From a virus: a stretch of 64,000 nt of DNA. Shown in pieces: positions 13,909-42,789 of the stretch; position 1 is the first letter of the stretch, and the number at the start of each line of letters is the position of its first letter. A program made the position numbers and the translations under genes. The stretch is from IMG/VR virus record IMGVR_UViG_3300030521_000002, positions 1 through 64,000 of that record, one strand, 5' to 3'. The notes under the pieces were generated by a model. The model had not been told where the DNA came from, searched no databases, and was given only the letters and a program-made list of their open reading frames with translations.

Positions 13909-14130
13909 TCACACACGGTAAGGCATCTCCTCTCGCTCCAGAGGAATCCCCAATGCCTTGCCCAAAGCTTCCGCCGTGGAGCTAAGCATTTGGCCGTGCA
14001 TGAGACTACCAGTACAAGGACCATTACGCTCGATGATCCATACGTCGCACATAGCCGTCTCAGGATAGCTCCTAATCCTTAGCAAGACGTTGGCAGGCTT
14101 AGGTTGCCTCTTGAGGATCGGCTTAGGCAT
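13909..14130 (-). CDS. hypothetical protein starting MPKPIL
   Basis: ORF; ATG CCT AAG CCG ATC. Confidence 0.55.
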   Translation of the reverse strand: MPKPILKRQPKPANVLLRIRSYPETAMCDVWIIERNGPCTGSLMHGQMLSSTAEALGKALGIPLEREEMPYRV

Positions 14131-14393
14131 CACTTAGCCTCAGTAGGAACGGTGGGGAGAAATACAATAGGGAGTTGTTCGGCAACTGCCCTACCGACAG
14201 CTTCAATCAATAGGGTAACACTCTTCTTACACTTCCTCTGTTCCTTAAACCCCTCCCCCGAGCAAGCCAGGATTCTGCCATTGACCGCCCTTAGATGCCA
14301 TCTCCACTCTCCCTTAGCGTCTTGGAAGACTTCAAAGCGAGGTGTCTTGGGCTTGTTCGCCTTAGCCTTGATTACGGGTTTCTTCTTTGCCAT
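14130..14393 (-). CDS. DUF1508/YegP-family protein
   Basis: RFEVFQDAKGEWRWHLRAVNGRILACSGEGF. Confidence 0.85.
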   Translation of the reverse strand: MAKKKPVIKAKANKPKTPRFEVFQDAKGEWRWHLRAVNGRILACSGEGFKEQRKCKKSVTLLIEAVGRAVAEQLPIVFLPTVPTEAK

Positions 14394-14413
14394 TGTCTAG
14401 CTCCTTGTAAAAG

Positions 14414-14977
14414 TTACTCGATTACATCGAACTCATTCCCACAACCACATGTAGGAACTCCCGACTCTTCCAACCACTTACGAGAGATTCGTAAATTACA
14501 TCCACACTCACAAACTAGTTTAATTGAACTACTGACCAACTTGGTTCTAGCAGTTGGTAATAGCGCTTGGTGCGGATAAGGCCCAAGCTTTCCTAAGAAC
14601 TTATCTAAAAGTTCCTTGAGTTTATCGCCAGGGCCAGCATTAGTGGGCTTTCCAACGAGCCCTAATGACCTGCAAGCGCGAATGAACATTCCCTTATGGC
14701 CACATTGCGTACCAACCGCTACGTGGACTAGCTCATGGGCTACCGTTCCAGCAACTTCGATAGGGTTCTCCAATGTAGGGCTAATAAACAATTCGTAGAT
14801 ACCCGCCTTGCTAGACACATTGGAATGGCACTGTCCGATAACCCTAGCTTTGCGACTCAATGCCCGAATACATGGCCAACCGCAAGTAATCCTCCAAGGG
14901 TCGAGCTTAAACCCCTTGCGAGAATACATGCCTGTTAGTTCTTCGGCTACCTTAGTTAGCCAATCCTCGCGGTTCAT
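14414..14977 (-). CDS. SprT-like zinc metalloprotease domain protein
   Basis: HELVH...GHKGMF zincin motif, C-terminal CxC...CxC. Confidence 0.75.
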   Translation of the reverse strand: MNREDWLTKVAEELTGMYSRKGFKLDPWRITCGWPCIRALSRKARVIGQCHSNVSSKAGIYELFISPTLENPIEVAGTVAHELVHVAVGTQCGHKGMFIRACRSLGLVGKPTNAGPGDKLKELLDKFLGKLGPYPHQALLPTARTKLVSSSIKLVCECGCNLRISRKWLEESGVPTCGCGNEFDVIE

Positions 14978-16335
14978 TCCTCAATCTCCGCATAGAGCTT
15001 GCGTAACCGATTCGTGAGCTTCCAGCGTTGTTGCTTGTTCTTAGCACCATTGGGCAAGGGCAAGTCCTCACGTTCAATCACATGAATCTTACGCAAGAAC
15101 CTGACCAGCACTTGGGTACGTTCCATCGGGTAGTGGGTATAGGCTGCTAAAGTCCCGGTATCCAAGCCTAACGTCGAACGGTAGAGGCAACGGACCATCT
15201 CCATAGTTTGGCCACTCGCTGTATTGATAGCCACCTTCTTCACCCTCCGCATGACTTCCTCATCAATCGTCTTGCGGTTTAATACCACTGCTAAGCAACA
15301 TGCCAACCTTACGAATTGGTGGGTAAGTCTCGTGGGCATTTCTTTAGAGCTACGTTCCTCAAACTTCTGGCCGGGCCTAGCTCGTAAGAAAGCCGTGAAC
15401 TCGGCTAACGAAGCGCACGTACCCACAATGGCATCCTCATCAATGGTCAGCATTGAAAGTAAGTCCTCGATGTTGCTCTTGAGCCAATCCACGTAGCCAC
15501 CCGTGAGTTGGTAAGCCTCTGCTTTCTCAGGAGTCATTTGACTTTCGGGGTGAGCACTCGATTTCTTCATTACCGAGCGTATAGCCGTGTAGCCCACCCT
15601 TCGCAGAATCTCTGCTTGTTCATCGTGACTTGGGGGATCGAAGAAGACTTTTAGGAACCGATCACCCAATTGGCTTTGGTCCGAGGCTAGCAGAGCGAAC
15701 GTGCCCGCCATGATCCAAGGGGTGCGCAATCCCATATAGCGGGTATCTTCATCCTTATTTTTGTAGGTAGAACCTGAAACACCATCGAAGATACGCCGTT
15801 GCTGGCCCATGATCTCGGCGAAGTTAGCTCCCGAAATGAGCGTATCACCTTCCGGGGTAATTAGCGTCTTACGGTTAATCCTTGAGATGAGCGAGAAATC
15901 CTTACCTTCGCCCCCGCCTTTCCATCCACTATGAAATCCGGTGATGTGCTCCAGGGCATGGCAAGACTTGCTAATTAGCATTCCGTCACAGAACTGCGTT
16001 TTGCCACTTCCGGCATCAGCAATCACCATGAGAAAGAGCTGGTCCCCAACTTGCTCGGTCGAAGCAGCTACCGCTAGCATGATGCTCAACACGTCGTCCA
16101 TCTCGCTTCGCCACTTCATCGCCTTACGCCAAGCATTGATTAAATCCCGGTAACTATTGCAAGGAATGGGTTGAAGCCCGGCGGAACCGTTTTTAAGGGC
16201 CTCATCTTCGTCGCTAGTGAGTGCTAGCTCTAGGGGACGTAATTTCCCTAGTATGGACTCCAAGGCCCGCAATCGGCCTCCTAGGCCCCTAGGATTAGAC
16301 GTTGGTAAACTACCTATCTTAACGGGGGTCGGCAA
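14974..16335 (-). CDS. MCM-like AAA+ ATPase / replicative helicase
   Basis: Walker A ADAGSGKT, QLGDRFL, EMPTRLTHQFVRLA sensor-like motif, C-terminal wHTH; near the primase. Confidence 0.65.
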   Translation of the reverse strand: MPTPVKIGSLPTSNPRGLGGRLRALESILGKLRPLELALTSDEDEALKNGSAGLQPIPCNSYRDLINAWRKAMKWRSEMDDVLSIMLAVAASTEQVGDQLFLMVIADAGSGKTQFCDGMLISKSCHALEHITGFHSGWKGGGEGKDFSLISRINRKTLITPEGDTLISGANFAEIMGQQRRIFDGVSGSTYKNKDEDTRYMGLRTPWIMAGTFALLASDQSQLGDRFLKVFFDPPSHDEQAEILRRVGYTAIRSVMKKSSAHPESQMTPEKAEAYQLTGGYVDWLKSNIEDLLSMLTIDEDAIVGTCASLAEFTAFLRARPGQKFEERSSKEMPTRLTHQFVRLACCLAVVLNRKTIDEEVMRRVKKVAINTASGQTMEMVRCLYRSTLGLDTGTLAAYTHYPMERTQVLVRFLRKIHVIEREDLPLPNGAKNKQQRWKLTNRLRKLYAEIEE

Positions 16336-16541
16336 TTTAGCCTCCTATCGAGAACAGCGAAGGACCACAATCGCTAGTACTGTGTATCCGGTGGATTTGA
16401 CTAATTGACAGAGGATTTCTCTCGGAACTTGCTTGTGCTTTAAGAGGTGCTGACCAGCAATAATCGTATGGCAAATAGCACTGACTCCATGATAGCCCAA
16501 GCTAACTAAGCACGAAGTATGGTTGAGTTTAGAGAGTTTCG

Positions 16542-17204
16542 TCATTTGCATCCCCAATCATGGCCCCAGGCCGATTCAAACTTAATCTCGATGCCTTGCA
16601 AGTTTATCTTTCCATAAGTTTTTACCGCCTTCTCGAAATCGAACTCCGAATCGTTCAGTAACACGAGAATCTCTTTGGTGGTATCAAGTAAACCCTGAAA
16701 TCTAGCTAAGGTTTGCTCAATCTCTTGCAGCGGTTGCTCAACCACCTGCTTGAGGATGTTGGGGGCGTTCTTATTCTTCCGCTTGAATCGCTTAGCTACC
16801 CCGAGCAGAATCTTCTTTTTCTTTTCCGTAGCCTTGATCTTCTCTTTCAATCCCCGTTCTTGGCCTTTGGCTTGATCCACCATCATCGCAATCATGTTCT
16901 CTTGCTCGGGATTCATATTCTTTTCGAGCATGAAGGCGATTGCGCCGTGAACTAATTGGTGGAGCATCTCCCTAAATTGGGATTCCGAGTTATCCGGTCG
17001 AGCATCCGTGCTACCAGTCTCATCGTATCGCTTCCGCTTAATCGGATCGGCTAGAATTTCAAATGCCAAAAGAATCTCCTTGTATAGCTGCTCATCCCCA
17101 CCCTTATCAGGATGATGTTCCTTGGATTGCTTACGGAGAGCAGCCTTGAGTTGCTCTAGCGTAGCCTCCCGATCGACTTCGAGGATTGTGTAAAGGTCCA
17201 TCAT
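16542..17204 (-). CDS. J-domain (DnaJ N-terminal) protein
   Basis: DLYTILEV...KEHHPDKGGD...AFEILADPIKRKRYD with HPD motif; helical C-terminus. Confidence 0.9.
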   Translation of the reverse strand: MMDLYTILEVDREATLEQLKAALRKQSKEHHPDKGGDEQLYKEILLAFEILADPIKRKRYDETGSTDARPDNSESQFREMLHQLVHGAIAFMLEKNMNPEQENMIAMMVDQAKGQERGLKEKIKATEKKKKILLGVAKRFKRKNKNAPNILKQVVEQPLQEIEQTLARFQGLLDTTKEILVLLNDSEFDFEKAVKTYGKINLQGIEIKFESAWGHDWGCK

Positions 17205-17578
17205 TAGAATGGGATTAGATGGTTAACTACCAATCGCTTGCCTCTGAATGACAAGTCCAAATCTCGCTTACTATTCTGGATAAAGTCCCTGGCAATCGCC
17301 AAGCTCTTAGTATCCCACTTGGGATCAAGGGGAGCAGGCAACTCTACGATTCTAGCACCCTTGCCCCAACCAACGGCGTAGCTCATGTGAACATCCTTAC
17401 CAAGAGCAAGCAGTAGCTTGAAAGGCTTAAGAGCTTCGATAGTCTTTTGGGTATGTTCTTCATTCCTCAAAGCTACAGCTCTTAGCCCAGAATGCCCCAC
17501 GAGCCAATACAGACGGCGTAGGACAATGGGATCGTTTTGTTTAGTATCGGTATAGAGAGCGATAACGTCAGGCATCAC
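17204..17578 (-). CDS. hypothetical protein
   Basis: ORF coupled to both neighbours. Confidence 0.5.
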   Translation of the reverse strand: MMPDVIALYTDTKQNDPIVLRRLYWLVGHSGLRAVALRNEEHTQKTIEALKPFKLLLALGKDVHMSYAVGWGKGARIVELPAPLDPKWDTKSLAIARDFIQNSKRDLDLSFRGKRLVVNHLIPF

Positions 17579-18504
17579 ACAACACCACTTAAACAGTCAC
17601 GTAGGTCAAATCCCGACGGTAATTCCAGATTGTACGTTTCATCGCCCCAACAGAGTAAGTTAATCTCGCTCGGTGGGGACTCTGACTCTTGCAATAGCTT
17701 AGCAATCCGCTCCATGCCACTATAACTAGCCGATGGAATAACAGCACCCGTCTTGGGGTGTTTACGGGGATGGTCATTATGGGCCATGAGGTTGACGATC
17801 TTGCCTGAAAATAAGGAACACCAACTAGGGAAGAAGGTGTTGTTGGAGGGTACAGCAATTATATTCCCCTGACTCAATAGGCTAGCTTCGGGGTTAGCCG
17901 TGGAAACCAAGCCCGCATCCCCTTGTTTAGCGGCTCTCAACACTTCCCAATAGGCTATGGCGTCCCAGACCCCCTCTACTAAGTCAACGATAGGTTTCTT
18001 GTTATCCATCAATTGGGGGCCGAGTAACTTATGGCCTAGTGTTGGTGTGGGATGTAGCAGGAACCTATTTTTCTCTTCCACGAAATGGTAGCGGTACAAC
18101 TGCTGCAATTTGCCTTCCTCATTGTAGCCCGGCACTAACCAATCATCGGTGGAAATAGACTTAGCTAAACCCCACATCATTAGCCCATCGCCATTTAGTA
18201 ACCGTCGATCGAGGGCTAGCTCATCGTAGCAGTCCCCGGTTGTGGCATCGAAGCTCATCTCCCAGAGCTTACGGATAAAGACATAAATGTTACCACCTTG
18301 GATTACTTCCCCTGTTTCTTTACCCTCATTGCAAGAGAAGCACCTCCACTGCCCCGTTTCAATGTTGACAGAGAACTTACCATCCTTGCCGCAAAAAAGG
18401 CAGTCAGACACAGCCTCTTTATCGTTGCCTCTCCAATGTAAATCTAACCCATGAAAGCGATATGGCTTCAAATTATCTGGGGTGGCATTGGGTAACTTCG
18501 GCAT
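17575..18504 (-). CDS. DNA primase (Zn finger + TOPRIM)
   Basis: CLFC...WRCFSC zinc finger; VEGVWD and HND TOPRIM motifs; GFDLRD. Confidence 0.8.
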   Translation of the reverse strand: MPKLPNATPDNLKPYRFHGLDLHWRGNDKEAVSDCLFCGKDGKFSVNIETGQWRCFSCNEGKETGEVIQGGNIYVFIRKLWEMSFDATTGDCYDELALDRRLLNGDGLMMWGLAKSISTDDWLVPGYNEEGKLQQLYRYHFVEEKNRFLLHPTPTLGHKLLGPQLMDNKKPIVDLVEGVWDAIAYWEVLRAAKQGDAGLVSTANPEASLLSQGNIIAVPSNNTFFPSWCSLFSGKIVNLMAHNDHPRKHPKTGAVIPSASYSGMERIAKLLQESESPPSEINLLCWGDETYNLELPSGFDLRDCLSGVV

Positions 18505-21919: not shown

Positions 21920-22666
21920 CTACAAAGCCTTCCCTAGACTAATTAGGGAAGGCTTTTTTATTTGTCCGTTCCGTTTGGAGTAAGCCCATTCGACTGAAGC
22001 TACCGCCGATCGATAACAGGCTTTGTCAATTTCGCACCCGATAAACTTTCGTCCGGTTTCAACACAAGCTACCCCAGTTGAGCAACCGCCCATGCACGGG
22101 TCGAAAATTAAAGCATCCGGGGGGGTGGTGTTCTCGATGAGATACCTTAGCAGGGCGGTAGGCTTGTGGTTCGGATGAACCTGACTAGGTTGGTACACCC
22201 TTGCATAACTTAGGATATCTCCCTTTCGCTTAGCTAATGGCCTTCCGCTCGCTTTTGCTAAGTACACAATAAATTCGTATTGCGAACCGTAGGAATTGTA
22301 GAGATCTCCACACCCCCAATTTTGCTTATCCCACACCAGAAGATTCTTCACACTGCCATAGACTTTTTTAGCGAGGGGGAGGACTTCTTCGATATTCGTA
22401 GGGGAACAAAAACAGTAGATTGAACCTAGCCCTGACAACTTGGATCGAATCGACGTAAGTATGTCCCCCATAAGCACTAAGCTTTCGTCATTGGCTATTA
22501 CTTCCGGGGTTTCAGAGGCAACTCGATGGTTCGTTTGGTAACTGATACCGTAGGGAGGGTCGGTAATGACTAGATCGACCGAGTGCCGTTCCAATTGGGG
22601 AATGTACTTTCGGCAATCCCCAAAAACGAGGGTACAATCCCCAATTTTCTTAATAATAGGGGGCAT
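21920..22666 (-). CDS. DNA N6-adenine/N4-cytosine methyltransferase (beta class)
   Basis: TDPPY, HPNHKP, DPCMGGCSTG, GCEID. Confidence 0.92.
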   Translation of the reverse strand: MPPIIKKIGDCTLVFGDCRKYIPQLERHSVDLVITDPPYGISYQTNHRVASETPEVIANDESLVLMGDILTSIRSKLSGLGSIYCFCSPTNIEEVLPLAKKVYGSVKNLLVWDKQNWGCGDLYNSYGSQYEFIVYLAKASGRPLAKRKGDILSYARVYQPSQVHPNHKPTALLRYLIENTTPPDALIFDPCMGGCSTGVACVETGRKFIGCEIDKACYRSAVASVEWAYSKRNGQIKKPSLISLGKAL

Positions 22667-23862
22667 TAGCTTTCCTCTTCTTGGGAACTCTTGTGTCTAC
22701 GGTCCCCTCGGTCGATTCCGCCTAATACCGGGAATTCTTCAAGATGCTTAAACTCCCCGTCGAACCGATACCGCAGGGAGACTCCCTTTTCGGTCAGTTC
22801 CTTCTTTGCAACGAATTGCGCCCAAGCCTTGATAATCAGGGCCACCTTCTCGGGGTTGCTACTCGCCTCATTCCGCATCTCCACGAGCTTGGTATGGAGC
22901 AAAAGCAAGTCTTTATGGTTACTAGCTAGCTTCTCCCAAAAGTCACAAGCTTGGTCCCATTGTTCCCAATCAATTACCGATTCGTTGGGGGGTGTCAGTT
23001 CCTTATATTCGTCCTGATTGGAGGTAGCGGCCCCCATGAGGTAAAGCAACCCACAAGCGATACCGGAAGGCATGAGCGTGGTTATCTTCCGGTGCTTACC
23101 CCCATCTTCCTCATAAACGAACTTAGCGGCCTCTAAGATGCGTTCGTGACGCTCGATGAAGTCCAAAGACTCACTATGGGTCCGAAGCCCGCTATAGGGA
23201 TTTAGGAACGCTCCCGTGCGTTGCCAAAGGAACTTCACGGCATACTCAAGAATCTTGCTTACCCGTTCCCGTTGGGCATTATTAAGCCCACCCTCGCGGA
23301 AGTACCCACCACGGTAAATCACATCCGCTAACGATCGAGGTTCCCCGGTGTCGATCGTATTGACTACCTCATCTTGCTCATCGCACCCGAAAGCGATCAA
23401 ACAGGCTAAAGTTGGCTCTGTCTTCCAAAATTTCTTCCACTTCGCTTGGTGTTGTTCCCATTCTTGGACGGCCAAGATCAGGCCGATTAAACGGTGCTGA
23501 CAACTAATGAGCAACCCGGTCTTGCCTACGATCATGGATTCGAGGTTCAACCGCCACTTACCACATAAGACTTCCTGGCGAATAAGGGAAGCGTTCGTGG
23601 GCTTGTAGGGACGGTTCCCCATATTATTTAGGCAACGAACCTTGGTTCCGTAACCGTCTAACAGGGTGAATTCTGCGCCAAACTTACAATCATCGGTTTC
23701 GGGTTCCCATCCTAGCAGTAGCTTAGCTTCATCTGCCGTTAGAAAGGGATCACGTTCACCGTTACAAAGCTTGATCGAAACTTCCGGGTAGATAATCTCC
23801 CTACCATTATTAGCTTTTGGTTTTCTTGTCTGAATAGGTTTCTTTTTTAGTAGTGGGGGCAT
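22666..23862 (-). CDS. ParB/DGQHR-like domain protein, paralogue A
   Basis: NRP...SCQHRL...TIDTGEPRSLAD; full-length similarity to 36675..37970. Confidence 0.55.
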   Translation of the reverse strand: MPPLLKKKPIQTRKPKANNGREIIYPEVSIKLCNGERDPFLTADEAKLLLGWEPETDDCKFGAEFTLLDGYGTKVRCLNNMGNRPYKPTNASLIRQEVLCGKWRLNLESMIVGKTGLLISCQHRLIGLILAVQEWEQHQAKWKKFWKTEPTLACLIAFGCDEQDEVVNTIDTGEPRSLADVIYRGGYFREGGLNNAQRERVSKILEYAVKFLWQRTGAFLNPYSGLRTHSESLDFIERHERILEAAKFVYEEDGGKHRKITTLMPSGIACGLLYLMGAATSNQDEYKELTPPNESVIDWEQWDQACDFWEKLASNHKDLLLLHTKLVEMRNEASSNPEKVALIIKAWAQFVAKKELTEKGVSLRYRFDGEFKHLEEFPVLGGIDRGDRRHKSSQEEES

Positions 23863-26550: not shown

Positions 26551-26669
26551 TTACCACTTCCACGACAGGGAATACACGTTCTACCACGACTCGATTTGCC
26601 AGTTCCCGAACATGCCACGCAGTCTCCCGAGCGGCGCAATGGCTTGAGCTTCTTGATAGGCTTAGGCAT
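26535..26669 (-). CDS. 44-aa zinc-finger microprotein (not in ORF track)
   Basis: translated by hand: MPKPIKKLKPLRRSGDCVACSGTGKSSRGRTCIPCRGSGKCRNQ*; two CxxCxGxG repeats; overlaps the upstream stop and the polA start. Confidence 0.7.
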   Translation of the reverse strand: MPKPIKKLKPLRRSGDCVACSGTGKSSRGRTCIPCRGSGKCRNQ

Positions 26670-28846: not shown

Positions 28847-29212
28847 CTACGACTCTTGTTGTGTCAGTTGCCCAATCCCTGCTCGAAAGGCAGCAAACAT
28901 CTCGTGGCGAATATACCCCTCTGGATCATTCTTGATAATGGAGGTATGGTTTGAATTGACCAACCATTTATCAAATAAAGCCCGCATTTGCTTCGCTTGC
29001 TCCCCCTCTTCTGTTCGCTTGGTTGTTCTCGGATTAGTCGATTTGCTGCCACGGCGGATAATCGCTTTGTACACTTCCTCACGATGAATGGGGACATCAG
29101 TAGGAGCTATGCAGCCCAATCTGACCTTATCTCCTCTGATATCCACAACCATGACGATAATATCCTCACCAATCATAATCGACTCATCACGTTGTCTTGA
29201 AAGCACCAGCAT
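28847..29212 (-). CDS. csrA: carbon storage regulator CsrA with C-terminal extension
   Basis: MLVLSRQRDESIMIG...VDIRGDKVRLG..AP..VPIHREEVY. Confidence 0.92.
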   Translation of the reverse strand: MLVLSRQRDESIMIGEDIIVMVVDIRGDKVRLGCIAPTDVPIHREEVYKAIIRRGSKSTNPRTTKRTEEGEQAKQMRALFDKWLVNSNHTSIIKNDPEGYIRHEMFAAFRAGIGQLTQQES

Positions 29213-30142: not shown

Positions 30143-31277
30143 CTTGTAGCTCTGGGAAAAGATTGGTGACTCGTTGAAGGCCAAGTGTACTACCGGTTTC
30201 TAAATGCTCGTCTAATTCTGTTGCACCGCCATCTAGTAAGGCAGAATAGCAACCAAAGGGCATGATGAAATGTTGGTGATTGTTTTCCATCCAAGGGTCT
30301 TGGAAGTTCTGTGAGGCTAGGTACTCATACCAATCACAGAGTTGTTCCAAGATCGGATTTAAGCACCTCTGCTTGAATTTAGCAACATCCCCAGCCGTGA
30401 GGTTTATTTTCCACCTCATAAAAAACCAGTTATCTCGCTTCTCTTTGATGGAGGCTTTGCATTCTTCTCTGATAATCCCATCCAAGCGACCATAGAATTC
30501 TTCGTCTGTCTCCTCTGGCTTCTTAGCAGTGGCTTGGTGCTTACGGATAGTAAACTTACCACCGCTCAAGGGGCGACGAACAGCATTGAATCTAACCCCA
30601 CAAATCGGAACACCATCGCTCTCCTTACTCAATGGCCCGTTCTCTCTAGTATACTCTTCCAACGCCACGGTATAGATGAGCGTTTGCAATTCAAAGTGTA
30701 GCTGACGTTGTATCTGCTGCTTATCAATATCGCCTTTTGACTTATTTTCCTGTAAAAATATCCCAACATTCTTACCCTTGCCAATCAGGTCTACGCTGTC
30801 CCACTTACCTCTCAAATAGACAGTCCGCCCCGACGGTAATTTATAAGGAACTTTGAAGACCTTCTCTTGGAAGATTGGTGTTCGATCCTTAACATCCGGG
30901 TGCTTAGACCAAAAGTCCATGTAATGTGGGAACTGGGTACGACAGATGTTGTACCAATGGTTAATTTGATCTGCTGCTAATTTGTACTGATCGAACAACC
31001 CTTGGCAGTAAATCTTTAATCTACCTTGCCACTTGTTACTTGCCCTAGCCCCAACGGCAACTTCCTCAGCATGGCTCTCTTCACAAATATGCCACATTTG
31101 CCCGTAAAAAATTCTGTGGTTCCAGCCATCGGCTTGCTTAAGGCCCTCAATAGTCTGTATTCTGAATCTTTCCCTGCAAACTAAAAATTTTGAGAGCAAG
31201 CTGAACGTAATGCCATCAACTTCTGGGCCTTGCCACACTGGTCTTTTAGCCGCATTTCTTATGACTGGTTTCGGCAT
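30135..31277 (-). CDS. PD-(D/E)xK exonuclease
   Basis: LRGKWDSVD...QENKS...QTLIY. Confidence 0.75.
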   Translation of the reverse strand: MPKPVIRNAAKRPVWQGPEVDGITFSLLSKFLVCRERFRIQTIEGLKQADGWNHRIFYGQMWHICEESHAEEVAVGARASNKWQGRLKIYCQGLFDQYKLAADQINHWYNICRTQFPHYMDFWSKHPDVKDRTPIFQEKVFKVPYKLPSGRTVYLRGKWDSVDLIGKGKNVGIFLQENKSKGDIDKQQIQRQLHFELQTLIYTVALEEYTRENGPLSKESDGVPICGVRFNAVRRPLSGGKFTIRKHQATAKKPEETDEEFYGRLDGIIREECKASIKEKRDNWFFMRWKINLTAGDVAKFKQRCLNPILEQLCDWYEYLASQNFQDPWMENNHQHFIMPFGCYSALLDGGATELDEHLETGSTLGLQRVTNLFPELQDA

Positions 31278-31992
31278 TTTGTCTCCTCCTTTTCCATGAT
31301 TCTTTCCTTGCTTCCGCTATCTTCGCTTTACATCCAGGTGTATTTAGTGCCTTTTTGATGGCTGCCTTATGGGAGTCAGACAATCTTTTGTCTTCTCTTG
31401 CATCCCATTGCGCCTTGACTATCAGGGATATTTTCTTTTTAGTTTCTTCGCTACGCTTTCTGCCCTTATTTTTCATCGAGATACTTTTACACACAGCCAA
31501 AGACCGTTTCTTACCGACGGAAGCTTTTGGACCCATCCTCAACGCTTCTAATTGCTTTTCGGTTAGATTGCCTTTTCTCTGTTTAGACCAAAGCAATTTG
31601 GTTTCTTCTGTGGGCCTATACCAAGCTCTCCCTTTCTTCGATTTAGCAATATGTTCCTCAGATAGTTTTACTCCTAAACAACTACCAGCGGTTGGGCATT
31701 TATTATAGCCAGTATCTTGTTCAGCGGCTCTTAGTTTATCCATCCAAACCTGTTCTCTTGGAACACACATTTTCTTTTGGCAAGTTTCCAAAACAATAAA
31801 TTCAAAGGCTTCTTCACCATACTTTAACCAAGCCCTCTGCAAGTGTTTATTGTGATGTAAATCCCTCCTTAACAGACATTTGTGTATGTACCACCTCTTT
31901 TTGATAGAAACAGCAGCACTTCCTACATAGACTTTGAGCGAGATTTTATGCCGTATTGCATACACTCCTGTCTTGTAAATAGGTTTGGGCAT
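31246..31992 (-). mobile_element. free-standing GIY-YIG endonuclease with NUMOD3-like repeats
   Basis: GVYAI...VYVGSA...HLQRAWLKYGEEAFEF...GYN; KRSEETKKKIS. Confidence 0.9.
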
Positions 31993-32293: not shown

Positions 32294-32998
32294 TCATAGT
32301 TCACCAAAGGCTTCGGCTAGGGTTATGATACAACGCTTTATGGCGAGAGATTGCTGGATTTGTTCGCTGCGAAGTATGGCTGCCGGGTGCAGAATTGTGA
32401 TGATCTTAGGATAGAGCTGCGAAACTTTAGCAACAGGATTGCCGCGTTGTACAGCTTTAGATTTAGGGCTTGCTTCCTTGCTAAGTCCAGTTCTTGCAGT
32501 TTGAGATTCTGGGCTTGGGTGATGAGACGCATATTTGGGTTCCTGAAGAATCTTGGGGAGCCATTTGTAGGCTAGCTCTCCGACACACACAATCAACTTA
32601 GGTTTCGTCAAAGCTACCAATTCTACCACACGAGGAGCGCAAGCTTCTATCGAGGCTTTGGGAGGTTGTGCAGCCTTTTCTCCTTGCTGCATTGGCAGAC
32701 ATGCAATCAAATTGCTATATGCAAAGGTTGGTTCCCCCTCATTAGCAGCAACTGCTCGTTCGATAATCTTGTGCAGCAAGCGTCCGGCAGGCCCCACAAA
32801 AGGCTGTCCAATAACATCCTCACTTTGTCCAGGTGCTTCGCCCAACATAAGTACAGAAGCCGGGATAACACCCTTGAGCAGCACCACGTGATTACGCCCC
32901 TTACACAAATCACACCGCTGACAATCTCGCCATTTTATTTTGTGCATGTCCCAAGGTGAGAACAATTTAGCAAGCTTATTGGAAATTGGTTTAGGCAT
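32294..32998 (-). CDS. uracil-DNA glycosylase (family 4, Fe-S)
   Basis: CQRCDLC, GEAPGQSE, GQPFVGPAG, HPAAILR; start MPKPIS after AGGAG. Confidence 0.9.
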   Translation of the reverse strand: MPKPISNKLAKLFSPWDMHKIKWRDCQRCDLCKGRNHVVLLKGVIPASVLMLGEAPGQSEDVIGQPFVGPAGRLLHKIIERAVAANEGEPTFAYSNLIACLPMQQGEKAAQPPKASIEACAPRVVELVALTKPKLIVCVGELAYKWLPKILQEPKYASHHPSPESQTARTGLSKEASPKSKAVQRGNPVAKVSQLYPKIITILHPAAILRSEQIQQSLAIKRCIITLAEAFGEL

Positions 32999-33436: not shown

Positions 33437-33958
33437 TTATCCTAATTTCCCTTCATGTAAACGCTGGCAATAAAGGGCAATCAACATTGCATCACAGACC
33501 GCTCGTTGTTTACCGAGAGTCTCTTTCCAGATTTCCTCTCGGGGGAATAACTGTTGGGCTTTTGCTCGCAGTCGGTCCTTCCACTTGTTAGTAGCCTCAC
33601 CTGCCTTGCGATTACTGATCCCCATTGCTTGTTGCCATTTGTAGGCTTGAACTGTCTCGAAGGGGATTTGAGCGGCAGTTAAAGCTGTTCTTAGGGCCAT
33701 ATAACTACCGTAGAGTTTAGACATAGGAGATTTTCCAATTCCTTTAATAGCTGGATGAATCCACTCAATAACTGCTGTAACATTAGAGTCTTTCAATCCA
33801 CTTATAAGAAACCAAATCCCAAGCTCTGTCTCAGGCATTGAGGCCCGTAAATCAAACATTCCACTGGGATAAATTGCTGCAATACCCCCATTGGCGCCTG
33901 GATCAATGCCTAGATACAAGCGGTCTTTAGTGATTGGTTTTGGCAAAACGGTATCCAT
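33437..33958 (-). CDS. RuvC-like Holliday junction resolvase
   Basis: LGIDPGANGGIA, VIE, WQQAM, DAMLIA; a TTG start at 33946 would give (M)PKPIT. Confidence 0.8.
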   Translation of the reverse strand: MDTVLPKPITKDRLYLGIDPGANGGIAAIYPSGMFDLRASMPETELGIWFLISGLKDSNVTAVIEWIHPAIKGIGKSPMSKLYGSYMALRTALTAAQIPFETVQAYKWQQAMGISNRKAGEATNKWKDRLRAKAQQLFPREEIWKETLGKQRAVCDAMLIALYCQRLHEGKLG

Positions 33959-36674: not shown

Positions 36675-37970
36675 ATGCCGAAACTATTAACGAAACCGAC
36701 AACACCCAAGAAGGACAAGCAGCAGAAACCGTTGACCCCTACGTCCAAGAGTACGTCGCCCGAGAAGAGCGAAGAAAGAAACGGTTCAGCGGAGGCAAAG
36801 CCGGTCAAGAAATTAGCGAGTTCCAAGGAACCGAGAAAGATTCTGTACCCCGCAATTGAACTTAAGATTTGTACCCCGAGTAGTCCACTCACGGTAGCCG
36901 ATGCTAAAAAACTACTCGAATGGCGGGAAGAGACGGAGCATGTCAAATTCGACGGAAAGGAATATGGCAGTGCTTTCCATACGAGGGGCAACGAAGAGAC
37001 ACGTAGGCGGGTTTGGTGTGCCAACAACCAGACGAATCGACCGATCGTGTGGCCAATGGTGGAAATGCTTTGGCAAGAGATTCTCCGGGGGAATTACCAA
37101 CTCAACGGAGAAACCATCATCATTGGCAAGACAGGGTTTGTCCTTAGCGGGCAGAACCGTTTGATTGCCTTAGTTCTAGCTGCCGAGATGTGGGCGGCTA
37201 AACCGGGACAATACAAAGAGGTTTGGAAGACCGAACCCACGATTACCGGGCTCGTGGTTGTGGGTATCGACGAAACCGATAAGGTGGTTAACACCATTGA
37301 TACGGGCAAACCTCGCGATATGGCAGACGTTTTCTACCGTAGCGAGTTCTTCGCCAAGTTCCACCCCAAGCAGCGCAAACCCCTGGCTAAGTTGGCCAAG
37401 TTTGCCCTGAAGATGCTTTGGCATCGTACGGGGGCCGATAAAGCGAATGCTTTTGCACCCCGGCAAACCCATGCTGAGAGCATCGACTTCGTGAAACGTC
37501 ACCCCAAGCTCTTGGAAGCGGTTAAGCACATCTATGAAGAAAATGGGACCGATGGCAAGATCAATCAGTTTCTTTCTCCGGGGTATGCCGCCGCTCTGAT
37601 GTACCTCCAAGCCGCTTGCCTTACCGAACGGGAGCGAGAAACCAAGGATGGCTATGGTGAGGTCGATACCCCTTCCGAGAAACTCCTCGATATGACCATG
37701 TGGGATAAATCCAGTGAATTCTGGGTAATGCTCGCCGGTCGTTCCAAGGAATTCGAGGCTGTGACCCAAGCCGTCGCCCAAGTTCGGGACTATGACCACG
37801 GCCTAGGTGGCTCGATCGACGAACGTACCACGATCCTCATCAATACGTGGAACGTCTGGACAAGCAACAAGAAGGTGACGTTGGCAGGGATTATGCCCAA
37901 GTACCATGACGGTGACGATGGCAAAACCCTGGTAGAAGTTCCTCACCTCGGTGGAATCGACGTGCGTTAG
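36675..37970 (+). CDS. ParB/DGQHR-like domain protein, paralogue B
   Basis: NRP...NGETIII..SGQNRL...TIDTGKPRDMAD. Confidence 0.6.
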   Translation: MPKLLTKPTTPKKDKQQKPLTPTSKSTSPEKSEERNGSAEAKPVKKLASSKEPRKILYPAIELKICTPSSPLTVADAKKLLEWREETEHVKFDGKEYGSAFHTRGNEETRRRVWCANNQTNRPIVWPMVEMLWQEILRGNYQLNGETIIIGKTGFVLSGQNRLIALVLAAEMWAAKPGQYKEVWKTEPTITGLVVVGIDETDKVVNTIDTGKPRDMADVFYRSEFFAKFHPKQRKPLAKLAKFALKMLWHRTGADKANAFAPRQTHAESIDFVKRHPKLLEAVKHIYEENGTDGKINQFLSPGYAAALMYLQAACLTERERETKDGYGEVDTPSEKLLDMTMWDKSSEFWVMLAGRSKEFEAVTQAVAQVRDYDHGLGGSIDERTTILINTWNVWTSNKKVTLAGIMPKYHDGDDGKTLVEVPHLGGIDVR

Positions 37971-38002
37971 GTGTTGTTTCAGTTCTTTCTTTTAAGGAGT
38001 TT

Positions 38003-38635: not shown

Positions 38636-38646
38636 TCGAAGTAACT

Positions 38647-38986: not shown

Positions 38987-39178
38987 ATGAAACCCACCGA
39001 GCTAGCCACCTACCTTGCCCTCAGTCACCAACAAGTCAGAGCCTTGTTGCGCAAGGGCAAGATCAAGTCTACCAAGAAGCAGACATTCACCCGCGAAGGA
39101 CGGGAGTTTGGATTTGAGTACGAGATTACCCCCGACGAAGCCCAACGTATCCAACAGGAGAGAACCAATGCCAAGTAA
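38987..39178 (+). CDS. HTH (excisionase-like) DNA-binding protein
   Basis: MKPTELATYLALSHQQVRALLRKGKI. Confidence 0.65.
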   Translation: MKPTELATYLALSHQQVRALLRKGKIKSTKKQTFTREGREFGFEYEITPDEAQRIQQERTNAK

Positions 39179-40310
39179 GAAGACCAAAGCGATTCCCCCG
39201 TCCAAGTTGGCCGACAAACTAGCCAAGCACAAGTCAGAGTTGGATGATGCCCCCCACCTGATCGTCCAAGCGCTCGCAGGAACCGGAAAAAGTACCACAA
39301 TTATCGAGGGCATCAAACTACTGTTTGATATGCCCCCCTCGATCATACCGAGCCCACAACAGCAAGAAATTTGGGATTCGATCCTCTTGAGCAAGGGGAA
39401 AGCTAAGTCTGTGTGCTTTTGCGCCTTCAACAAGAGCATTGCAACAGAACTTCAGCAACGTGTTCCTCCCGGTTGTATCGCCCAGACCATGCACTCGATG
39501 GGATTCAAGGCGGTTCAAGCGGCCTTTGGTAAGGTCCAAGTCAATCAGTACCGAGTACAAGACATTATCAGCGAACTACTCGGCAAGGATATTCGGGATT
39601 TGCGCAAAGACAAGTTCACGATGATTAAAGCTGTGGAAGAATTGGTAGGGTTGTGCAAGCAGACTTTGACAGGCTTTGAGCGACCTAAAACCGGAATCGA
39701 GCGATTGGATTATGCCAATTACAACTGTCAAATCGTATGGCCGGAAACTCTTGCTAACTTGGCAGATTACTACGACGTGGATTGCAACGGTTCTAGTGCT
39801 GAAATCTTCGACCTAGTTCCCCAGGTCTTGGAACGCTGCAAGGACGTTGCCAAGGATCGTTGTATCGACTTTGCTGATATGGTGTGGCTCCCGGTTGTTC
39901 TTAATCTTTCGGTGCAACAATACGACTTACTACTGGTGGATGAGGTTCAGGATTTAGCTAAAGTACAACAACAACTCGCTCTCAAGGCCGGTAAACGCTT
40001 GATACTTGTAGGCGACAGTCGGCAAGCTATTTATGGTTGGGTTGGCGCTGACTCTGGCAGTATGGAGCGAATGTACGATATTTTGTTAGACTACTGTCGT
40101 GCTTGTGATGGGGCTGGAACTATTCTTGGGGCAGTTTGTGAGCAATGTGCCGGTAAAGGAAGTGAAGGGAGGGGTTGTCGAGTTCTACCCTTGACTGTCA
40201 CTCGCCGTTGTGGGAGAGCCATTGTTGAGGAAGCTAAGAAGATTGTTCCGAATTTTGAATGGCATCCGAATAACGGGGAAGGAAAAGTCAGCTATGCACG
40301 GATGAACTAA
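39168..40310 (+). CDS. UvrD/Rep-like SF1 helicase, N-terminal part
   Basis: ALAGTGKST, AFNKSIA, TMHSMG, LVDEVQD, VGDSRQAIY, TRRC; AGGAG RBS before the ATG at 39168. Confidence 0.88.
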   Translation: MPSKKTKAIPPSKLADKLAKHKSELDDAPHLIVQALAGTGKSTTIIEGIKLLFDMPPSIIPSPQQQEIWDSILLSKGKAKSVCFCAFNKSIATELQQRVPPGCIAQTMHSMGFKAVQAAFGKVQVNQYRVQDIISELLGKDIRDLRKDKFTMIKAVEELVGLCKQTLTGFERPKTGIERLDYANYNCQIVWPETLANLADYYDVDCNGSSAEIFDLVPQVLERCKDVAKDRCIDFADMVWLPVVLNLSVQQYDLLLVDEVQDLAKVQQQLALKAGKRLILVGDSRQAIYGWVGADSGSMERMYDILLDYCRACDGAGTILGAVCEQCAGKGSEGRGCRVLPLTVTRRCGRAIVEEAKKIVPNFEWHPNNGEGKVSYARMN

Positions 40311-40318
40311 CAAGATAC

Positions 40319-40413
40319 AATTAGATGTAAGGCTAGACCGGCCAGTCGAAGAGTCAGCACCACACTGACCTGCCTTATATCTAATTTTGTGGGGTTACTG
40401 GTGGAGTAACTTC
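40319..40413 (+). promoter_or_regulatory. structured leader of the GIY-YIG gene (3-way junction plus RBS-sequestering hairpin)
   Basis: 15-bp stem 40319-33/40372-86 enclosing two small hairpins; gttact/agtaac hairpin covering GGAG at 40403-06. Confidence 0.6.
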
Positions 40414-40414
40414 T

Positions 40415-41372
40415 ATGCCTTCTCCCAAGGGTTGGAAATCTGGCGTTTATTGTATTCTTAATACGATTAACGGAAAAAGATACATTGGCAGTGCTGCTAG
40501 GTGTTTCAAAGGGCGATTAGCGGATCATAAGCTTAGGCTTAAAAGTAAAACACATGCTAATCGGTACCTACAAAACGCTTGGAATAAGTACGGCGAGAAG
40601 GCATTTCAATTTATGGTTATTACCGGATGTTGTCCCAGCCTTTGCATAGAGATTGAGCAGCAATACATAGACTTGTACAACTCATCCAACTCTAAGTTTG
40701 GCTACAACATCTGCCCAAGAGCCGGCAGTAGATTGGGCACCAAATTATCACCAGAGGTTTGTGCCAAATTTTCCATAATCTCCAAGGAGAAAATGAACCG
40801 CCCAGAAGTCAGAGCTAAATTATCCGCTGGGACAATAAGGGGCGATGAAGAACCCAGAACTTAGAGCTATTCTCTCAACAAAGGCCAAGAAAAGATTCCA
40901 AGACCCGGAAGCTAGAAGGAAGGCATCTAGAAAAGCAAAAGAAGTTCAGAACAAACCCGAAGTAAGGGCTAAACGGCTAGCAACTTTGAGTTTACCTGAA
41001 TACCAAGAAAAAGTTTCTAGGCTCCAAAAAGATTCTTGGAAAAACAAGTCAACGAGAGATAAAAGAATAGCGGGAATGAAGAAAGCTGTTTTAGCACCAG
41101 GATTCAAAACGAAACTTTCTATTGCATTGAAACAAGGCTGGAGAAAATGTCTTATTAGACAAGGGATTATTTTGAAGAGCCGAATCGGAGAAAGGGAGTT
41201 TACTGTTAGTGAGGTGGTAGAAGTCATGCAATACCAAAGTAGGTTTGGAGCCAGAACTCTTATTTGGAAGTTGGTCAGTTTGGGATTAGCAACATGCTTA
41301 GTGCAGCCCGTAACCAAGCATGTTGTTGGAATTTTCGGGTGGAATGAGGAAAACGAACTATGGAAAATTTAG
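40415..41372 (+). mobile_element. GIY-YIG endonuclease, frameshifted (ORFs 40415..40864 + 40845..41372)
   Basis: GVYCI..RYIGSA..YLQNAWNKYG; PEVRAK-type repeats continue across the break; removing one G from the run at 40839-42 fuses the ORFs. Confidence 0.8.
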
Positions 41373-41929
41373 GCTGCTACAGAGAGTTAGTTAAGGATGG
41401 GGATTTAGTGCTGTGCAGAATTAACGCACCGCTAGTTTCCGAGTGTTTCAAACTATTGAAATCTGGTAGGAAAGCTTCGATCCAGGGTCGTGACATTGGC
41501 CAGGGGCTTATCAAGACCATCGAGAAGATGAAAGCTAGTTCCATCGTTGACATGGTTGCCAAGCTCGATGATTGGCTACGTGCTGAGACGCTCAAGGAAC
41601 AGGCCAAGCGTAACCCCCGAGAACAGAAGACCATCAACCTAGGTGACAGGCATGATTGTCTTTGTACGTTTTGTGAGGATGCTCAGAGCGTACAAGATGT
41701 GGTTGACAAGATTACCCGGATATTCTCTGACACCACGAGCGGCGGGATTCTCCTAAGTTCCATACATCGCGCAAAAGGGAAAGAGGCATCTCGTGTTTTC
41801 CTCTTGCAACCCAAGGGGGCAGAAGTAAATCACCCCATGACAAAGACTGCTCAAGGCAAGGCCGAGAACCAAAATCTAATGTATGTGGCAATTACCAGAA
41901 GTATCCAAGAACTTATTTTTGTGAGCTAA
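41360..41929 (+). CDS. UvrD/Rep-like SF1 helicase, C-terminal part
   Basis: VLCRINAPL, SSIHRAKGKE, NLMYVAITRS; own GAGGA RBS. Confidence 0.88.
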   Translation: MENLGCYRELVKDGDLVLCRINAPLVSECFKLLKSGRKASIQGRDIGQGLIKTIEKMKASSIVDMVAKLDDWLRAETLKEQAKRNPREQKTINLGDRHDCLCTFCEDAQSVQDVVDKITRIFSDTTSGGILLSSIHRAKGKEASRVFLLQPKGAEVNHPMTKTAQGKAENQNLMYVAITRSIQELIFVS

Positions 41930-41932
41930 ACA

Positions 41933-42241
41933 ATGCCCAAGCCAATCTCCAAGAAGAAACCAACTCCACCCCCGATCAGCAAGCCCCAGGAACCTAGCCC
42001 TTACTCCAACTTGCTCCTAGCCTATGGTGATAAACCACCATTTACTCCACGCAAGGGCAAGGGCGATGTGGTTGTGGACATTAAACGTAAGTTGCAGGAG
42101 TATGTCTTCATCCTCGATAACGGAGATACCTTCACTGCTCCTACGTTGGTCAAGATTCCGGGGGATCGGATCGAAGCCAATGGGCGAGCTTATGCTGATG
42201 GCCGTGGTCAGAAGTTACGTGACAAACTTAACATGGAGTAA
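41933..42241 (+). CDS. hypothetical protein starting MPKPISKK
   Basis: ORF directly after the helicase. Confidence 0.6.
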   Translation: MPKPISKKKPTPPPISKPQEPSPYSNLLLAYGDKPPFTPRKGKGDVVVDIKRKLQEYVFILDNGDTFTAPTLVKIPGDRIEANGRAYADGRGQKLRDKLNME

Positions 42242-42573
42242 ACGATGATGATGCAAACGATCGCTAATTGGGATACGGAGTTTTCCAAACGTATCGTTGC
42301 CAGATGCCGTTCGGGAGATGCCGAAGCAGACCATTCACGTGCCGATGGGATTTTGGTTGATTTTCTCAATCTGATTGGGATGGAGAAAACAGCCAAGGCA
42401 TTTGAAGAAACCGAGAGGCAATACGATTAGCGTTAATCTAGGTAGTTTGGGAAGCACCCCATACAACCGCCTAGGATCGCCGTGGCCGCGTTGTAAGCCC
42501 TAACGTCTAGAATCACGTACCGATAATCCAAACGCATTACCGTGCAAGTGGGTGCCCTTAAATCGAGGATTCT

Positions 42574-42789
42574 ATGCCCAAGCCCATCCTATTCCGTCAC
42601 GAAGGCCCGCTAATCGTCTTTAGGGATATTTGGGCAGGGCGAATTGCCTACCGAGACCCTCCCGTGCATGGGGAGCAACTTGTAGAGATAGAGAGCTACG
42701 CCGAAGCCAGAACCCACGCTGCTCAGCTAGGCTACAAAGGAATCAGTGTTGTGTTTGAAACCCTAACCCAAGGAGTGAGCGATGTATAA
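42574..42789 (+). CDS. hypothetical protein starting MPKPILF
   Basis: GAGGA RBS. Confidence 0.6.
   Translation: MPKPILFRHEGPLIVFRDIWAGRIAYRDPPVHGEQLVEIESYAEARTHAAQLGYKGISVVFETLTQGVSDV

Follow-up and report, generated by a model that had tools for sequence, protein, structure and literature searches.

What does a phage gain from placing the same five amino acids at the start of unrelated proteins? In the 75,293-bp genome of an uncultivated phage, referred to as G000 in comparisons, seven open reading frames (ORFs) begin with exactly MPKPI. The window analyzed here is a stretch of 64,000 nucleotides of this genome, and its first-pass annotation had proposed a phage-wide address tag. The tag indeed looks like a putative short address or docking label that has not been described before: the first-pass annotation knew of no such system, and no description of such a tag was found.

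MPKPI starts in the phage genome

The seven exact MPKPI starts were confirmed at positions 14130 (−), 26550 (−), 26669 (−), 31992 (−), 32998 (−), 41933 (+), and 42574 (+). The pattern ATGCCNAARCCNATH had 7 matches in the 75,293-bp genome, compared to 0.02 expected from shuffled sequence. All 7 copies were ORF starts, and the 11 kb beyond the window contained no extra ones. In real reading frames, PKPI occurred only at N termini, and PKP[IVL] was likewise N-terminal in real coding frames with one internal FPKPL as the sole exception. The near variants MPKPV at 31277 (−), MPKVI at 30142 (−), and PKPI behind a TTG at 33946 (−) were also present, as were looser MP starts at 18504 (−), 36675 (+), 22666 (−), 23862 (−), 16335 (−, TTG), 40415 (+), 34605 (−), 39168 (+), and 17575 (−).

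Genes with the exact tag:
13909 to 14130, minus strand: hypothetical protein of 73 amino acids, no family match, starts MPKPILKRQPKP
23884 to 26550, minus strand: family A DNA polymerase (polA) of 888 amino acids, starts MPKPISKKLTPK, with the tag ahead of the exonuclease motif LSVDTE
26535 to 26669, minus strand: Zn-ribbon microprotein of 44 amino acids with two CxxCxGxG motifs, starts MPKPIKKLKP
31246 to 31992, minus strand: GIY-YIG endonuclease, starts MPKPIYKTGVY
32294 to 32998, minus strand: protein of the uracil-DNA glycosylase (UDG) superfamily, starts MPKPISNKL
41933 to 42241, plus strand: hypothetical protein of 102 amino acids, starts MPKPISKKKPTPPP
42574 to 42789, plus strand: hypothetical protein of 71 amino acids, starts MPKPILFRH

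Genes with a near variant:
30135 to 31277, minus strand: PD-(D/E)XK exonuclease, starts MPKPVIRNAAKR
29222 to 30142, minus strand: AAA_24 (Sak4-like) ATPase, starts MPKVIKQ
33437 to 33958, minus strand: RuvC-like Holliday-junction resolvase, PKPITKD after the TTG at 33946, alternative ATG at 33958

Genes with a looser form:
17575 to 18504, minus strand: primase-like protein, MPKLP
21920 to 22666, minus strand: N6/N4 DNA methyltransferase (MTase), MPPIIKK
22666 to 23862, minus strand: phrog_5931 protein, MPPLLKKKP, paralogue of the next
36675 to 37970, plus strand: phrog_5931 protein, MPKLLTKP, paralogue of the preceding
14974 to 16335, minus strand: protein of 453 amino acids without known family, TTG start, MPTPVK
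40415 to 40864, plus strand: second GIY-YIG endonuclease, starts MPSPKGWKSGVY
39015 to 40310, plus strand: N-terminal half of a UvrD-type helicase, MPSKKTK at 39168 (ATG) or MPSVT at 39015 (TTG)

The ATG of the resolvase ORF is located four codons upstream of the TTG, so that a free N-terminal PKPI requires the TTG start. The counterpart of the Zn-ribbon microprotein in L008 begins MPKIPERKCKACGG.

Carriers were assigned to families with Pfam and PHROGs in a scan of 32 of about 115 ORFs, mostly of the replication module. This supported most of the first-pass assignments, namely, polA, GIY-YIG, UDG, PD-(D/E)XK exonuclease, AAA_24, Holliday-junction resolvase, DNA MTase, UvrD-type helicase, and primase-like, but neither “ParB-like” for the two phrog_5931 paralogues (a family of unknown function) nor “MCM-like” for the protein at 14974 to 16335 was confirmed. 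The tag is found mainly on proteins of replication, recombination, and repair and, as had been noted, no virion gene in the structural region starts with the exact MPKPI. It is not phage-wide, however, with carriers numbering about 10 to 18 among the approximately 50 genes of the module and not including, for instance, CsrA and the SSB-like protein. A few ORFs in the structural region begin with MP, as MPLST, MPMDM, or MPKLN.

Behind the tag, the residues differ between carriers (SKKL, LKRQ, KKLK, YKTG, etc.). These tails consist of polar and basic residues, and within 8 to 15 residues the enzyme core begins.

Constraint on the peptide

In codons 1 to 5 of the tag, only the non-wobble bases were conserved. 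Ten or 11 of the 15 bases were fixed, and the remaining ones varied as the genetic code permits, with any base after CC, A or G after AA, and A, C, or T after AT. Tag pairs of G000 had a codon identity of 31% compared to about 37% expected from codon usage, and at identical tag residues the codon identity was 34% within and 35% between genomes. DNA upstream and downstream of the tags showed no similarity between copies. Because only the non-wobble bases are conserved, the constraint acts on the peptide and not on DNA or RNA, in agreement with the first-pass annotation.

The number of fixed bases might nevertheless point to a signal in the nucleic acid, with either a translational repressor binding at the start codon or a boundary for recombination or cassettes lying over it, and phage translational repressors that bind to start regions exist, such as T4 RegA. 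Such a signal is hard to reconcile with variation that follows the genetic code exactly, the unrelated flanks, and the missing excess of codon identity. Nucleotide conservation independent of the codon position, as in a downstream box or a RegA-type operator, was not observed either. This explanation is already largely refuted, and its remaining probability is close to negligible.

Genome-specific versions in related phages

The relatives of G000 form a large uncultivated clade of phages with genomes of about 60 to 100 kb, and no cultured member of the clade was found. With gene starts taken from a simple SD-based caller, Pro was the second residue in 18.6% of the ORFs in the replication modules of the relatives compared to 3.8% in unrelated IMG/VR loci, and MPK starts accounted for 5.6% compared to 0.5%. 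In five complete genomes, 51 of 173 starts in the replication module but 23 of 271 outside were MP starts (odds ratio, 4.5; p = 2e-8). Since module and non-module genes have the same host, a host-wide N-terminal habit is an unlikely cause of this difference.

The consensus differs from genome to genome, with MPKPI in G000, MPRLIDD in G004, MPVSNR in G005, and MPx[IL]E, MP[KR]APTK, or MPxPVR in other relatives. In these versions, MP is the invariant part, the following residues vary, and the length and sequence of the tail past residue 6 vary freely. Position 3 is occupied by K or R in about 36% of the MP starts. Tails are basic in most genomes, and some genomes use acidic tags (MPRLIDD or MPxIE).

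Residues 3 to 6 of non-homologous MP proteins from the same genome had a similarity of 0.56 compared to 0.37 expected when N termini were shuffled inside each family (z = 9.6, in statistics that count related genomes as independent after crude de-duplication). The excess persisted without G000. It was absent in the same proteins at residues 13 to 16 or 31 to 34, and non-MP starts exhibited only a weak within-genome excess. At the tag, proteins that are otherwise unrelated thus show concerted evolution within a genome.

The tag is an optional addition ahead of conserved enzyme cores that is gained and lost. Orthologues of polA, UDG, RuvC, and the exonuclease have either an MP tag with a spacer or start at the conserved core, and some polA orthologues start directly at M(I/R)ISLDTETTG. 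In orthologues with 60 to 80% identity, the tag is retained despite synonymous changes (e.g., MPRLIDDE/MPRLIEDD). Usage in the relatives depends on the family, with 77% for AAA_24, where the N-terminal MPx[IV]xKQ is conserved, 80% for the MTase, 3% for family 7, and 0% for CsrA. The first-pass annotation had asked if orthologues in related phages carry the tag. MP starts are enriched there, but every genome has its own version and some orthologues have none.

A putative recognition peptide and its alternatives

The clade may share an N-terminal short linear motif that takes a different form in each genome, MPKPI being the form of G000, and this motif would be a putative recognition peptide read by a co-evolving partner. 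This is the explanation we tentatively prefer. Such a motif would span Met-Pro and about four more residues, in many cases with a flexible, charged spacer behind it, and would have been grafted onto proteins of replication, recombination, and repair ahead of their catalytic cores. MetAP cleaves the initiator Met before Pro, so that the Met is probably removed and the free N-terminal Pro-x-x-x would be read by one shared partner, which would co-evolve with the tag and treat its unrelated carriers as a single group, e.g., by bringing them to the replisome or the recombination machinery of the phage. The genome-specific versions and the concerted change in unrelated proteins, both seen in the sequences, fit such a tag with a putative co-evolving reader. 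A specific interface would have to be built from only five to six residues, which is short. Effects on translation or processing that are particular to the host may contribute.

The tag could also act without a dedicated reader as a cap for a flexible arm, which we regard as unlikely but worth keeping in mind. An N-terminal X-Pro protects peptides, and the Pro exposed after Met removal would resist aminopeptidases and thereby protect a short, disordered, mostly basic tail, with a second X-Pro bond being present in MPKPI; the tail in turn would add non-specific DNA affinity or bind electrostatically to the acidic linker of the SSB-like protein. The invariant MP with variable residues behind it, the freedom past residue 6, the basic tails on DNA-acting enzymes in most genomes, and the weak trend connecting acidic SSB linkers to basic N termini are in agreement with a cap. 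A cap leaves unexplained, however, why seven unrelated proteins have an identical pentapeptide and why residues 3 to 6 change in concert within a genome (z = 9.6), and the acidic tags of some genomes indicate that charge-based DNA binding is not general.

Two further alternatives place the effect into protein synthesis or protein fate. The first residues (fMet-Pro-Lys-...) may determine how efficiently or when early elongation proceeds in early and middle genes, or they may permit translation by an apparatus that the phage has altered. Codons 3 to 5 strongly affect protein yield, with Lys-Ile being favorable there, the motif is limited to the opening codons and a single expression class, the replication module, and the clade encodes a CsrA-like translational regulator. 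This co-translational role is nevertheless rather improbable: with free synonymous positions, the effect must act through the peptide alone, genome-specific consensuses of five residues are difficult to derive from a highly conserved ribosome, CsrA and family 7 are essentially without tag, orthologues often lack it altogether, and no phage factor that would act on the ribosome tunnel was recognized. Alternatively, the peptide may serve as a degron or for modification. Its reader would then be a protease adaptor or a modifying enzyme, such as an N-terminal methyl- or acyl-transferase, that times how long early proteins live or are active. Such a role would be a special case of a tag with a reader, with a different outcome, and the same evidence applies to it. 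M-P-[KR] would expose Lys or Arg, which are secondary destabilizing residues of the bacterial N-degron pathway, if Met-Pro were removed, and M-P-K resembles the eukaryotic X-P-K motif for alpha-N-methylation. This possibility is a poor one. Only about 36% of the MP starts show K or R in the third position, tag usage was not linked to any dedicated peptidase or protein methyltransferase of the module, and the sole methyltransferase found among the 32 of about 115 ORFs scanned belongs to a DNA MTase family.

Candidate readers

If the tag is a recognition peptide, two proteins found throughout the clade are candidates for its reader, the core of the Sak4-like AAA_24 ATPase and, as a reader or hub, the following protein:
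27679 to 28815, minus strand: SSB-like protein of 378 amino acids, untagged, clade-wide, adjoining the AAA_24 gene

From the N to the C terminus, the SSB-like protein has a beta-rich OB-like domain, a linker that is disordered and very acidic, and a Tudor/SH3-like barrel. The tag-poor relative G002 has this protein as well. The charge of the tags was weakly related to that of its C terminus in a comparison without phylogenetic correction, and the relation became weaker with linker and barrel taken separately (rho values of −0.32 and −0.19, respectively). A more acidic linker weakly tends to go with more basic N termini. The N terminus of the ATPase is itself the best-conserved form of the motif. 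None of the gene families of the module was positively associated with tag richness, and no sliding clamp was recognized among the 32 ORFs scanned.

A J-domain protein, which the first-pass annotation had listed for co-folding with the peptide, was ruled out as a general reader. No homologue was found in the four complete relatives, and only one weak match (28% identity, L086) was found among the segments of 80 relatives, which span 10 kb on either side of the exonuclease, from which the gene is about 14 kb away in G000.

As a more far-reaching and rather doubtful possibility, the clade may run a private addressing system, in which a free, lineage-retuned N-terminal Pro-x-x-x-x would mark the clients of one phage-encoded reader, possibly the Tudor/SH3-like barrel or the Sak4-like core, that would assemble a replication-recombination factory. 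Viral N-terminal sorting or docking signals would thereby gain a new class, with the tag listing the clients.

As a recognition peptide, the tag would define a functional group of proteins in a widespread uncultured clade, including several small proteins without known function, and would reveal how the parts of a phage replisome or recombination factory are brought together by a five-residue N-terminal label re-tuned per lineage. An N-terminal, Pro-initiated motif would join the few known hub-docking peptides, offering a handle for finding the hub and a rule for annotation and the choice of start codons in these genomes. If the tag were a stability cap or a translation device instead, it would still represent an unusually strict, lineage-specific selection of N-terminal sequence.

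Comparison with known systems

The T4 capsid-targeting sequence is also an N-terminal address peptide, of about 10 residues, on unrelated phage proteins, but these are head-packaged and lose the peptide through cleavage by the prohead protease, whereas the carriers here are replication and repair enzymes (polA, UDG, GIY-YIG, exonuclease, AAA_24, and resolvase) without a shared Glu-containing L/I-x-E site after the tag. A Sec, Tat, or lipoprotein signal peptide does not agree with the polar and basic tails, which contain no hydrophobic h-region of at least 7 residues. Encapsulation peptides of microcompartments and cargo peptides of encapsulins similarly use one short terminal tag to gather unrelated enzymes on a shell or hub, but they form amphipathic helices about 18 residues long or are defined motifs at the C terminus, and not 5 to 6 residues with one or two prolines, and no shell family was matched among the 32 ORFs scanned, mostly of the replication module.

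Closer in the manner of reading are the ClpS N-degron, the eukaryotic GID4 Pro/N-degron, and the IAP-binding AVPI, where a small pocket reads the free N terminus and the next 2 to 4 residues. In eukaryotes, N-terminal Pro is known to act as a recognition element, and no reader of it is known from bacteria or phages. Unlike for N-degrons, nothing about the tag indicates degradation. A fit to the bacterial Leu/N-degron (ClpS) would need Met-Pro removal, with K or R at position 3 in 36% of the MP starts, and X-P-K alpha-N-methylation of the NTMT type fits M-P-K only with Met retained, no protein methyltransferase being among the 32 ORFs scanned.

Hub-docking motifs, such as the beta-clamp motif QL[SD]LF, the PIP-box, and those of the clients of the acidic C-terminal tip of SSB, are likewise very short peptides common to unrelated DNA-metabolism proteins, and the kinds of clients are the same: polymerases, nucleases, glycosylases, methyltransferases, and recombination proteins. 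The tag shares with them the short terminal peptide on several unrelated clients of DNA metabolism. Its sequence is unrelated, however, since MPKPI, MPRLIDD, MPVSNR, and the other tags do not agree with QL[SD]LF or Qxx[LIM]xx[FY][FY], and it requires the extreme N terminus with Met-Pro, differs per genome, and is not tied to a clamp or hub. Docking by a terminal peptide was shown for the Sak4-SSB pair of phage HK620, where Sak4 binds the neighboring SSB via that SSB's C-terminal tail (PMC5928155), which gives a precedent, albeit with the peptide on the hub, while the tag is on the clients. If the core of the Sak4-like ATPase reads the tags, these would mimic the ATPase's own N terminus, in a proposed parallel to the BRC repeats, which mimic the RAD51 polymerization motif.

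The replication module and its relatives

The full IMG/VR virus record has 75,293 bp, is rated complete by CheckV, and contributes its first 64 kb to the window. A replication, recombination, and repair module is located between 13.9 and 43.2 kb, and the remainder of the record is structural.

Gene products of the module (13.9 to 43.2 kb) assigned by Pfam/PHROGs, followed by three further ORFs
16542-17204: J-domain protein
23884-26550 (-): family A DNA polymerase (PolA)
28847-29212 (-): CsrA-like protein
29222-30142 (-): AAA_24 (Sak4-like) ATPase
30135-31277 (-): PD-(D/E)XK exonuclease
39015-41929 (+): UvrD-type helicase split over two ORFs, 39015-40310 with the UvrD N-domain and 41360-41929 with UvrD_C
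GIY-YIG endonucleases: two, one of them at 40415-40864
Also in the module: UDG; RuvC-like resolvase; N6/N4 DNA methyltransferase (MTase); primase-like protein; ParB_N
Further, 24774-25466 (-): 230-aa ORF nested in polA in another frame
Further, 26535-26669 (-): tagged 44-aa microprotein composed of two DnaJ-type CxxCxGxG zinc-finger repeats
Further, 27679-28815 (-): untagged 378-aa SSB-like protein

The CsrA-like gene (Pfam CsrA, E = 4e-21) is positioned between the AAA_24 and SSB-like genes and conserved in 36 relatives; its product has 121 aa versus about 60 aa in the relatives, indicating a C-terminal extension, and is predicted to be a phage-encoded translational regulator inside the replication module. 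PolA has 888 aa versus about 680 aa in the relatives. The helicase pieces are separated by the GIY-YIG endonuclease gene at 40415-40864 and a 175-aa ORF, and the C-terminal end of the N-half (39015-40310, +) gave a weak match to the DnaJ_CXXCXGXG profile. A Shine-Dalgarno-like box of extended, genome-specific sequence precedes many genes (AGGAGCTA in this phage, TAGGAGCGAA in the complete relative G002); it exceeds the usual anti-Shine-Dalgarno complement in length and may contain a promoter or regulatory element.

No cultured relative was found with the exonuclease by tblastn (0 matches among 50,697 phage records), and the PolA search yielded only distant matches with less than 30% identity. 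No tRNA genes were found in the phage genome. A scan of genome contigs revealed two contigs inside MAGs labeled Dehalococcoidia and Saccharibacteria, one of them identical to the 73,771-bp contig of IMG/VR locus L037. The exonuclease had 1,737 database homologues, none above 50 to 55% identity and many of them located on 60- to 80-kb contigs; the closest are known from Logan/ENA contigs alone, for instance, P0002 (54% identity, 77.5-kb contig). As relatives, 80 IMG/VR loci at exonuclease orthologues, 2 loci at polA, and 4 complete genomes were sampled and only crudely de-duplicated before statistics. Their ORF starts come from a simple caller that weighed the length of the ORF, its Shine-Dalgarno score, and its start codon and was blind to the peptide.

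MPKPI in the phage genome

The degenerate DNA pattern encoding MPKPI occurred 7 times on both strands versus 0.02 expected, all 7 copies were at ORF starts, and the genome contained no others; 3 of the 7 starts were backed by a stop/start overlap or a Shine-Dalgarno site. In real coding frames, PKP[IVL] was N-terminal with the sole exception of one internal FPKPL. The first-pass annotation had described these seven exact starts, the near variants MPKPV, MPKVI, and TTG-PKPI, and looser Met-Pro (MP) starts, all of which were recovered. Its claim that the constraint acts on the peptide and not on a DNA or RNA repeat also held. The DNA upstream and downstream of the tagged genes is unrelated, conservation is limited to the non-wobble bases of codons 1 to 5, and pairs of tags shared 31% of their codons versus about 37% predicted from codon usage. 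Free wobble bases, unrelated flanks, and codon sharing no higher than predicted therefore place the constraint on the peptide, which leaves a nucleic-acid signal essentially excluded, and the codon and flank data likewise rule out recent DNA copying or gene conversion.

Among 2.9 million viral contigs, the longer pattern MPKPIxKK was rare, with 56 single matches, about 14 of them at plausible ORF starts; no second MPKP start was found near any match, and the pattern was never present on several genes of one locus.

Met-Pro starts in the relatives

Proline was the commonest second residue in the replication modules of the relatives (18.6% of 1,656 ORFs) versus 3.8% of 780 ORFs in unrelated viral loci treated with the same gene caller, and MPK starts accounted for 5.6% versus 0.5%. 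MP was followed by K or R in 36% and next by I, V, or L in 43%. In the five complete genomes, 51 of 173 ORFs within the replication module began with MP versus 23 of 271 outside (odds ratio, 4.5; p = 2e-8). All genes of a phage have the same host, so that a host-wide N-terminal preference does not account for this concentration in the module.

The orthologues of PolA, UDG, resolvase, and exonuclease either had an MP tag joined to a spacer, variable and in most cases basic, or started directly at the conserved core, for instance, with MIISLDTETTG or MTYFIGIDPG. Judged from these N-termini, the tag is an add-on before conserved cores. Orthologues in related phages carry such a tag only in part: MP starts are enriched, but the relatives use their own versions, and many orthologues are untagged.

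MP starts by protein family in the relatives
Family 13: 85%
MTase: 80%
AAA_24: 77%
phrog_5931: 45%
Resolvase: 43%
Exonuclease: 36%
UDG: 23%
PolA: 19%
Helicase: 4%
Family 7: 3%
CsrA: 0%

The best-conserved form was the AAA_24 N-terminus, MPx[IV]xKQ. AAA_24 orthologues have another N-terminal motif in common, S-V-[LW]-D-R-I-x-P-[VI], which comes after a basic linker that varies and immediately ahead of the Walker A strand.

Genome-specific versions change in concert

N-terminal consensus by genome (G, complete genome; L, IMG/VR locus)
G000 (phage under study): MPKPI
G002: almost no tag
G003: MP[KR][LV]xK
G004: MPRLIDD/E (acidic)
G005: MPVSNR, MPVANR, MPVSRR
L013: MPx[IL]E
L023: MP[KR]APTK
L027: MPK[VI]T
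L051: MPxPVR

Likeness within a genome was compared with N-termini shuffled across genomes inside each protein family. Non-homologous MP proteins of one genome shared residues 3 to 6 at 0.56 versus 0.37 after shuffling (z = 9.6), and at least 3 of these 4 residues were identical in 2.6% of the same-genome pairs versus 0.4%; the likeness persisted without the phage under study. The excess was weak at residues 7 to 10 (z = 1.7) and for non-MP starts (z = 2.2) and absent at residues 13 to 16 (z = 0.0) and 31 to 34 (z = 0.4), so that genome composition is not the cause. Codon identity at shared tag residues was 34% within and 35% between genomes, and orthologue pairs with 60 to 80% identity retained their tags via synonymous changes. 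Every tested family joined the concerted pattern except the SSB-like protein, the N-terminus of which is its own conserved helix.

On these data, a short N-terminal peptide appears to be under purifying selection and to change concertedly among the unrelated proteins of one genome, the pattern that would be expected for ligands of one co-evolving putative “reader,” a partner protein recognizing the tag. The invariant Met-Pro together with the specificity of MetAP suggests that an exposed N-terminal proline matters. The distant subclade L082 and L083 uses MA[KT] starts (MAKKIP, MATVTRQ, MAKVTNK) instead of MP. Alanine, like proline, permits Met excision, and the second residue may need only to allow Met removal.

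A Met-Pro cap protecting a flexible, charged arm would account for the basic tails and for MP being invariant but leaves the identical pentapeptides and the acidic versions unexplained, and is unlikely. An effect of the nascent chain on early elongation, which fits the tag position and the expression class, explains neither the genome-specific consensus nor the many untagged orthologues and is less probable again. A degron or modification site, which would be a variant of the reader model, is without specific support and the least likely of these three.

Candidates for the putative reader

No reader was found: phyletic profiling identified no module family positively linked to tag richness. 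The J-domain protein was rejected as a general reader: none of the four complete relatives had a homologue, and the segments of the relatives, which extend 10 kb to each side of the exonuclease and may fall short of the gene, contained one weak match (28% identity, L086).

The SSB-like protein, without a Pfam or PHROG match, is conserved throughout the clade and was present in all complete genomes checked, including the tag-poor G002. In its AF2 model (pLDDT 86), a helix at the N-terminus is followed by an OB-like domain rich in beta strands and by a disordered linker that is very acidic and rich in Ser and Glu (about residues 289 to 312); the C-terminal part is a Tudor/SH3-like barrel that matched the SMN Tudor domain with Z = 8.6 (rmsd 1.7 Å, 56 residues), best Z values of 7 to 8 being typical even without a clear match. 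Foldseek gave no clear PDB match for the N-domain, and an ESM Atlas search yielded only a weak DUF669 lead. In architecture and gene position, the SSB-like protein resembles those phage SSBs that recruit partners via acidic tails, including the Sak4-SSB pair (PMC5928155). It probably represents a new SSB-type protein, encoded next to the gene for the Sak4-like ATPase.

The C-terminal charge of the SSB-like protein correlated weakly with tag charge (rho = -0.45 for the last 65 residues; taken separately, -0.32 for the linker and -0.19 for the barrel; all uncorrected for phylogeny). When its residues 285 to 378 were co-folded with the 44-aa tagged Zn-ribbon protein, the score was 0.21 (mark, 0.32), which argues neither for binding nor against it. 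Residues 1 to 20 of the AAA_24 model, of intermediate confidence (pLDDT 70 to 77) and without secondary structure, are compatible with a docking peptide. In many relatives (L012 to L089), the N-terminal tail of the exonuclease contains a motif like (S/D)xLAxKLK/G, similar to the helix KSSLAAKLG that is conserved at the N-terminus of the SSB-like protein. The motif is not present in the exonuclease of this phage; where it occurs, it may be another shared element for docking.

Comparison with known systems

No published description of such an N-terminal tag was found in the literature. Three known kinds of peptide come nearest to it: short linear motifs by which replication proteins dock on a hub, the capsid-targeting sequence of T4, and encapsulation peptides. 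The tag does not display the defining sequence of the hub-docking motifs, and the defining sequence or context features of the capsid-targeting sequence and of the encapsulation peptides, when tested, were not found either, shell families being sought in 32 ORFs, mostly of the replication module. The tag is therefore placed outside these three families: in general kind, it would be a shared terminal recognition peptide, distinct from the hub-docking, capsid-targeting, and encapsulation types.
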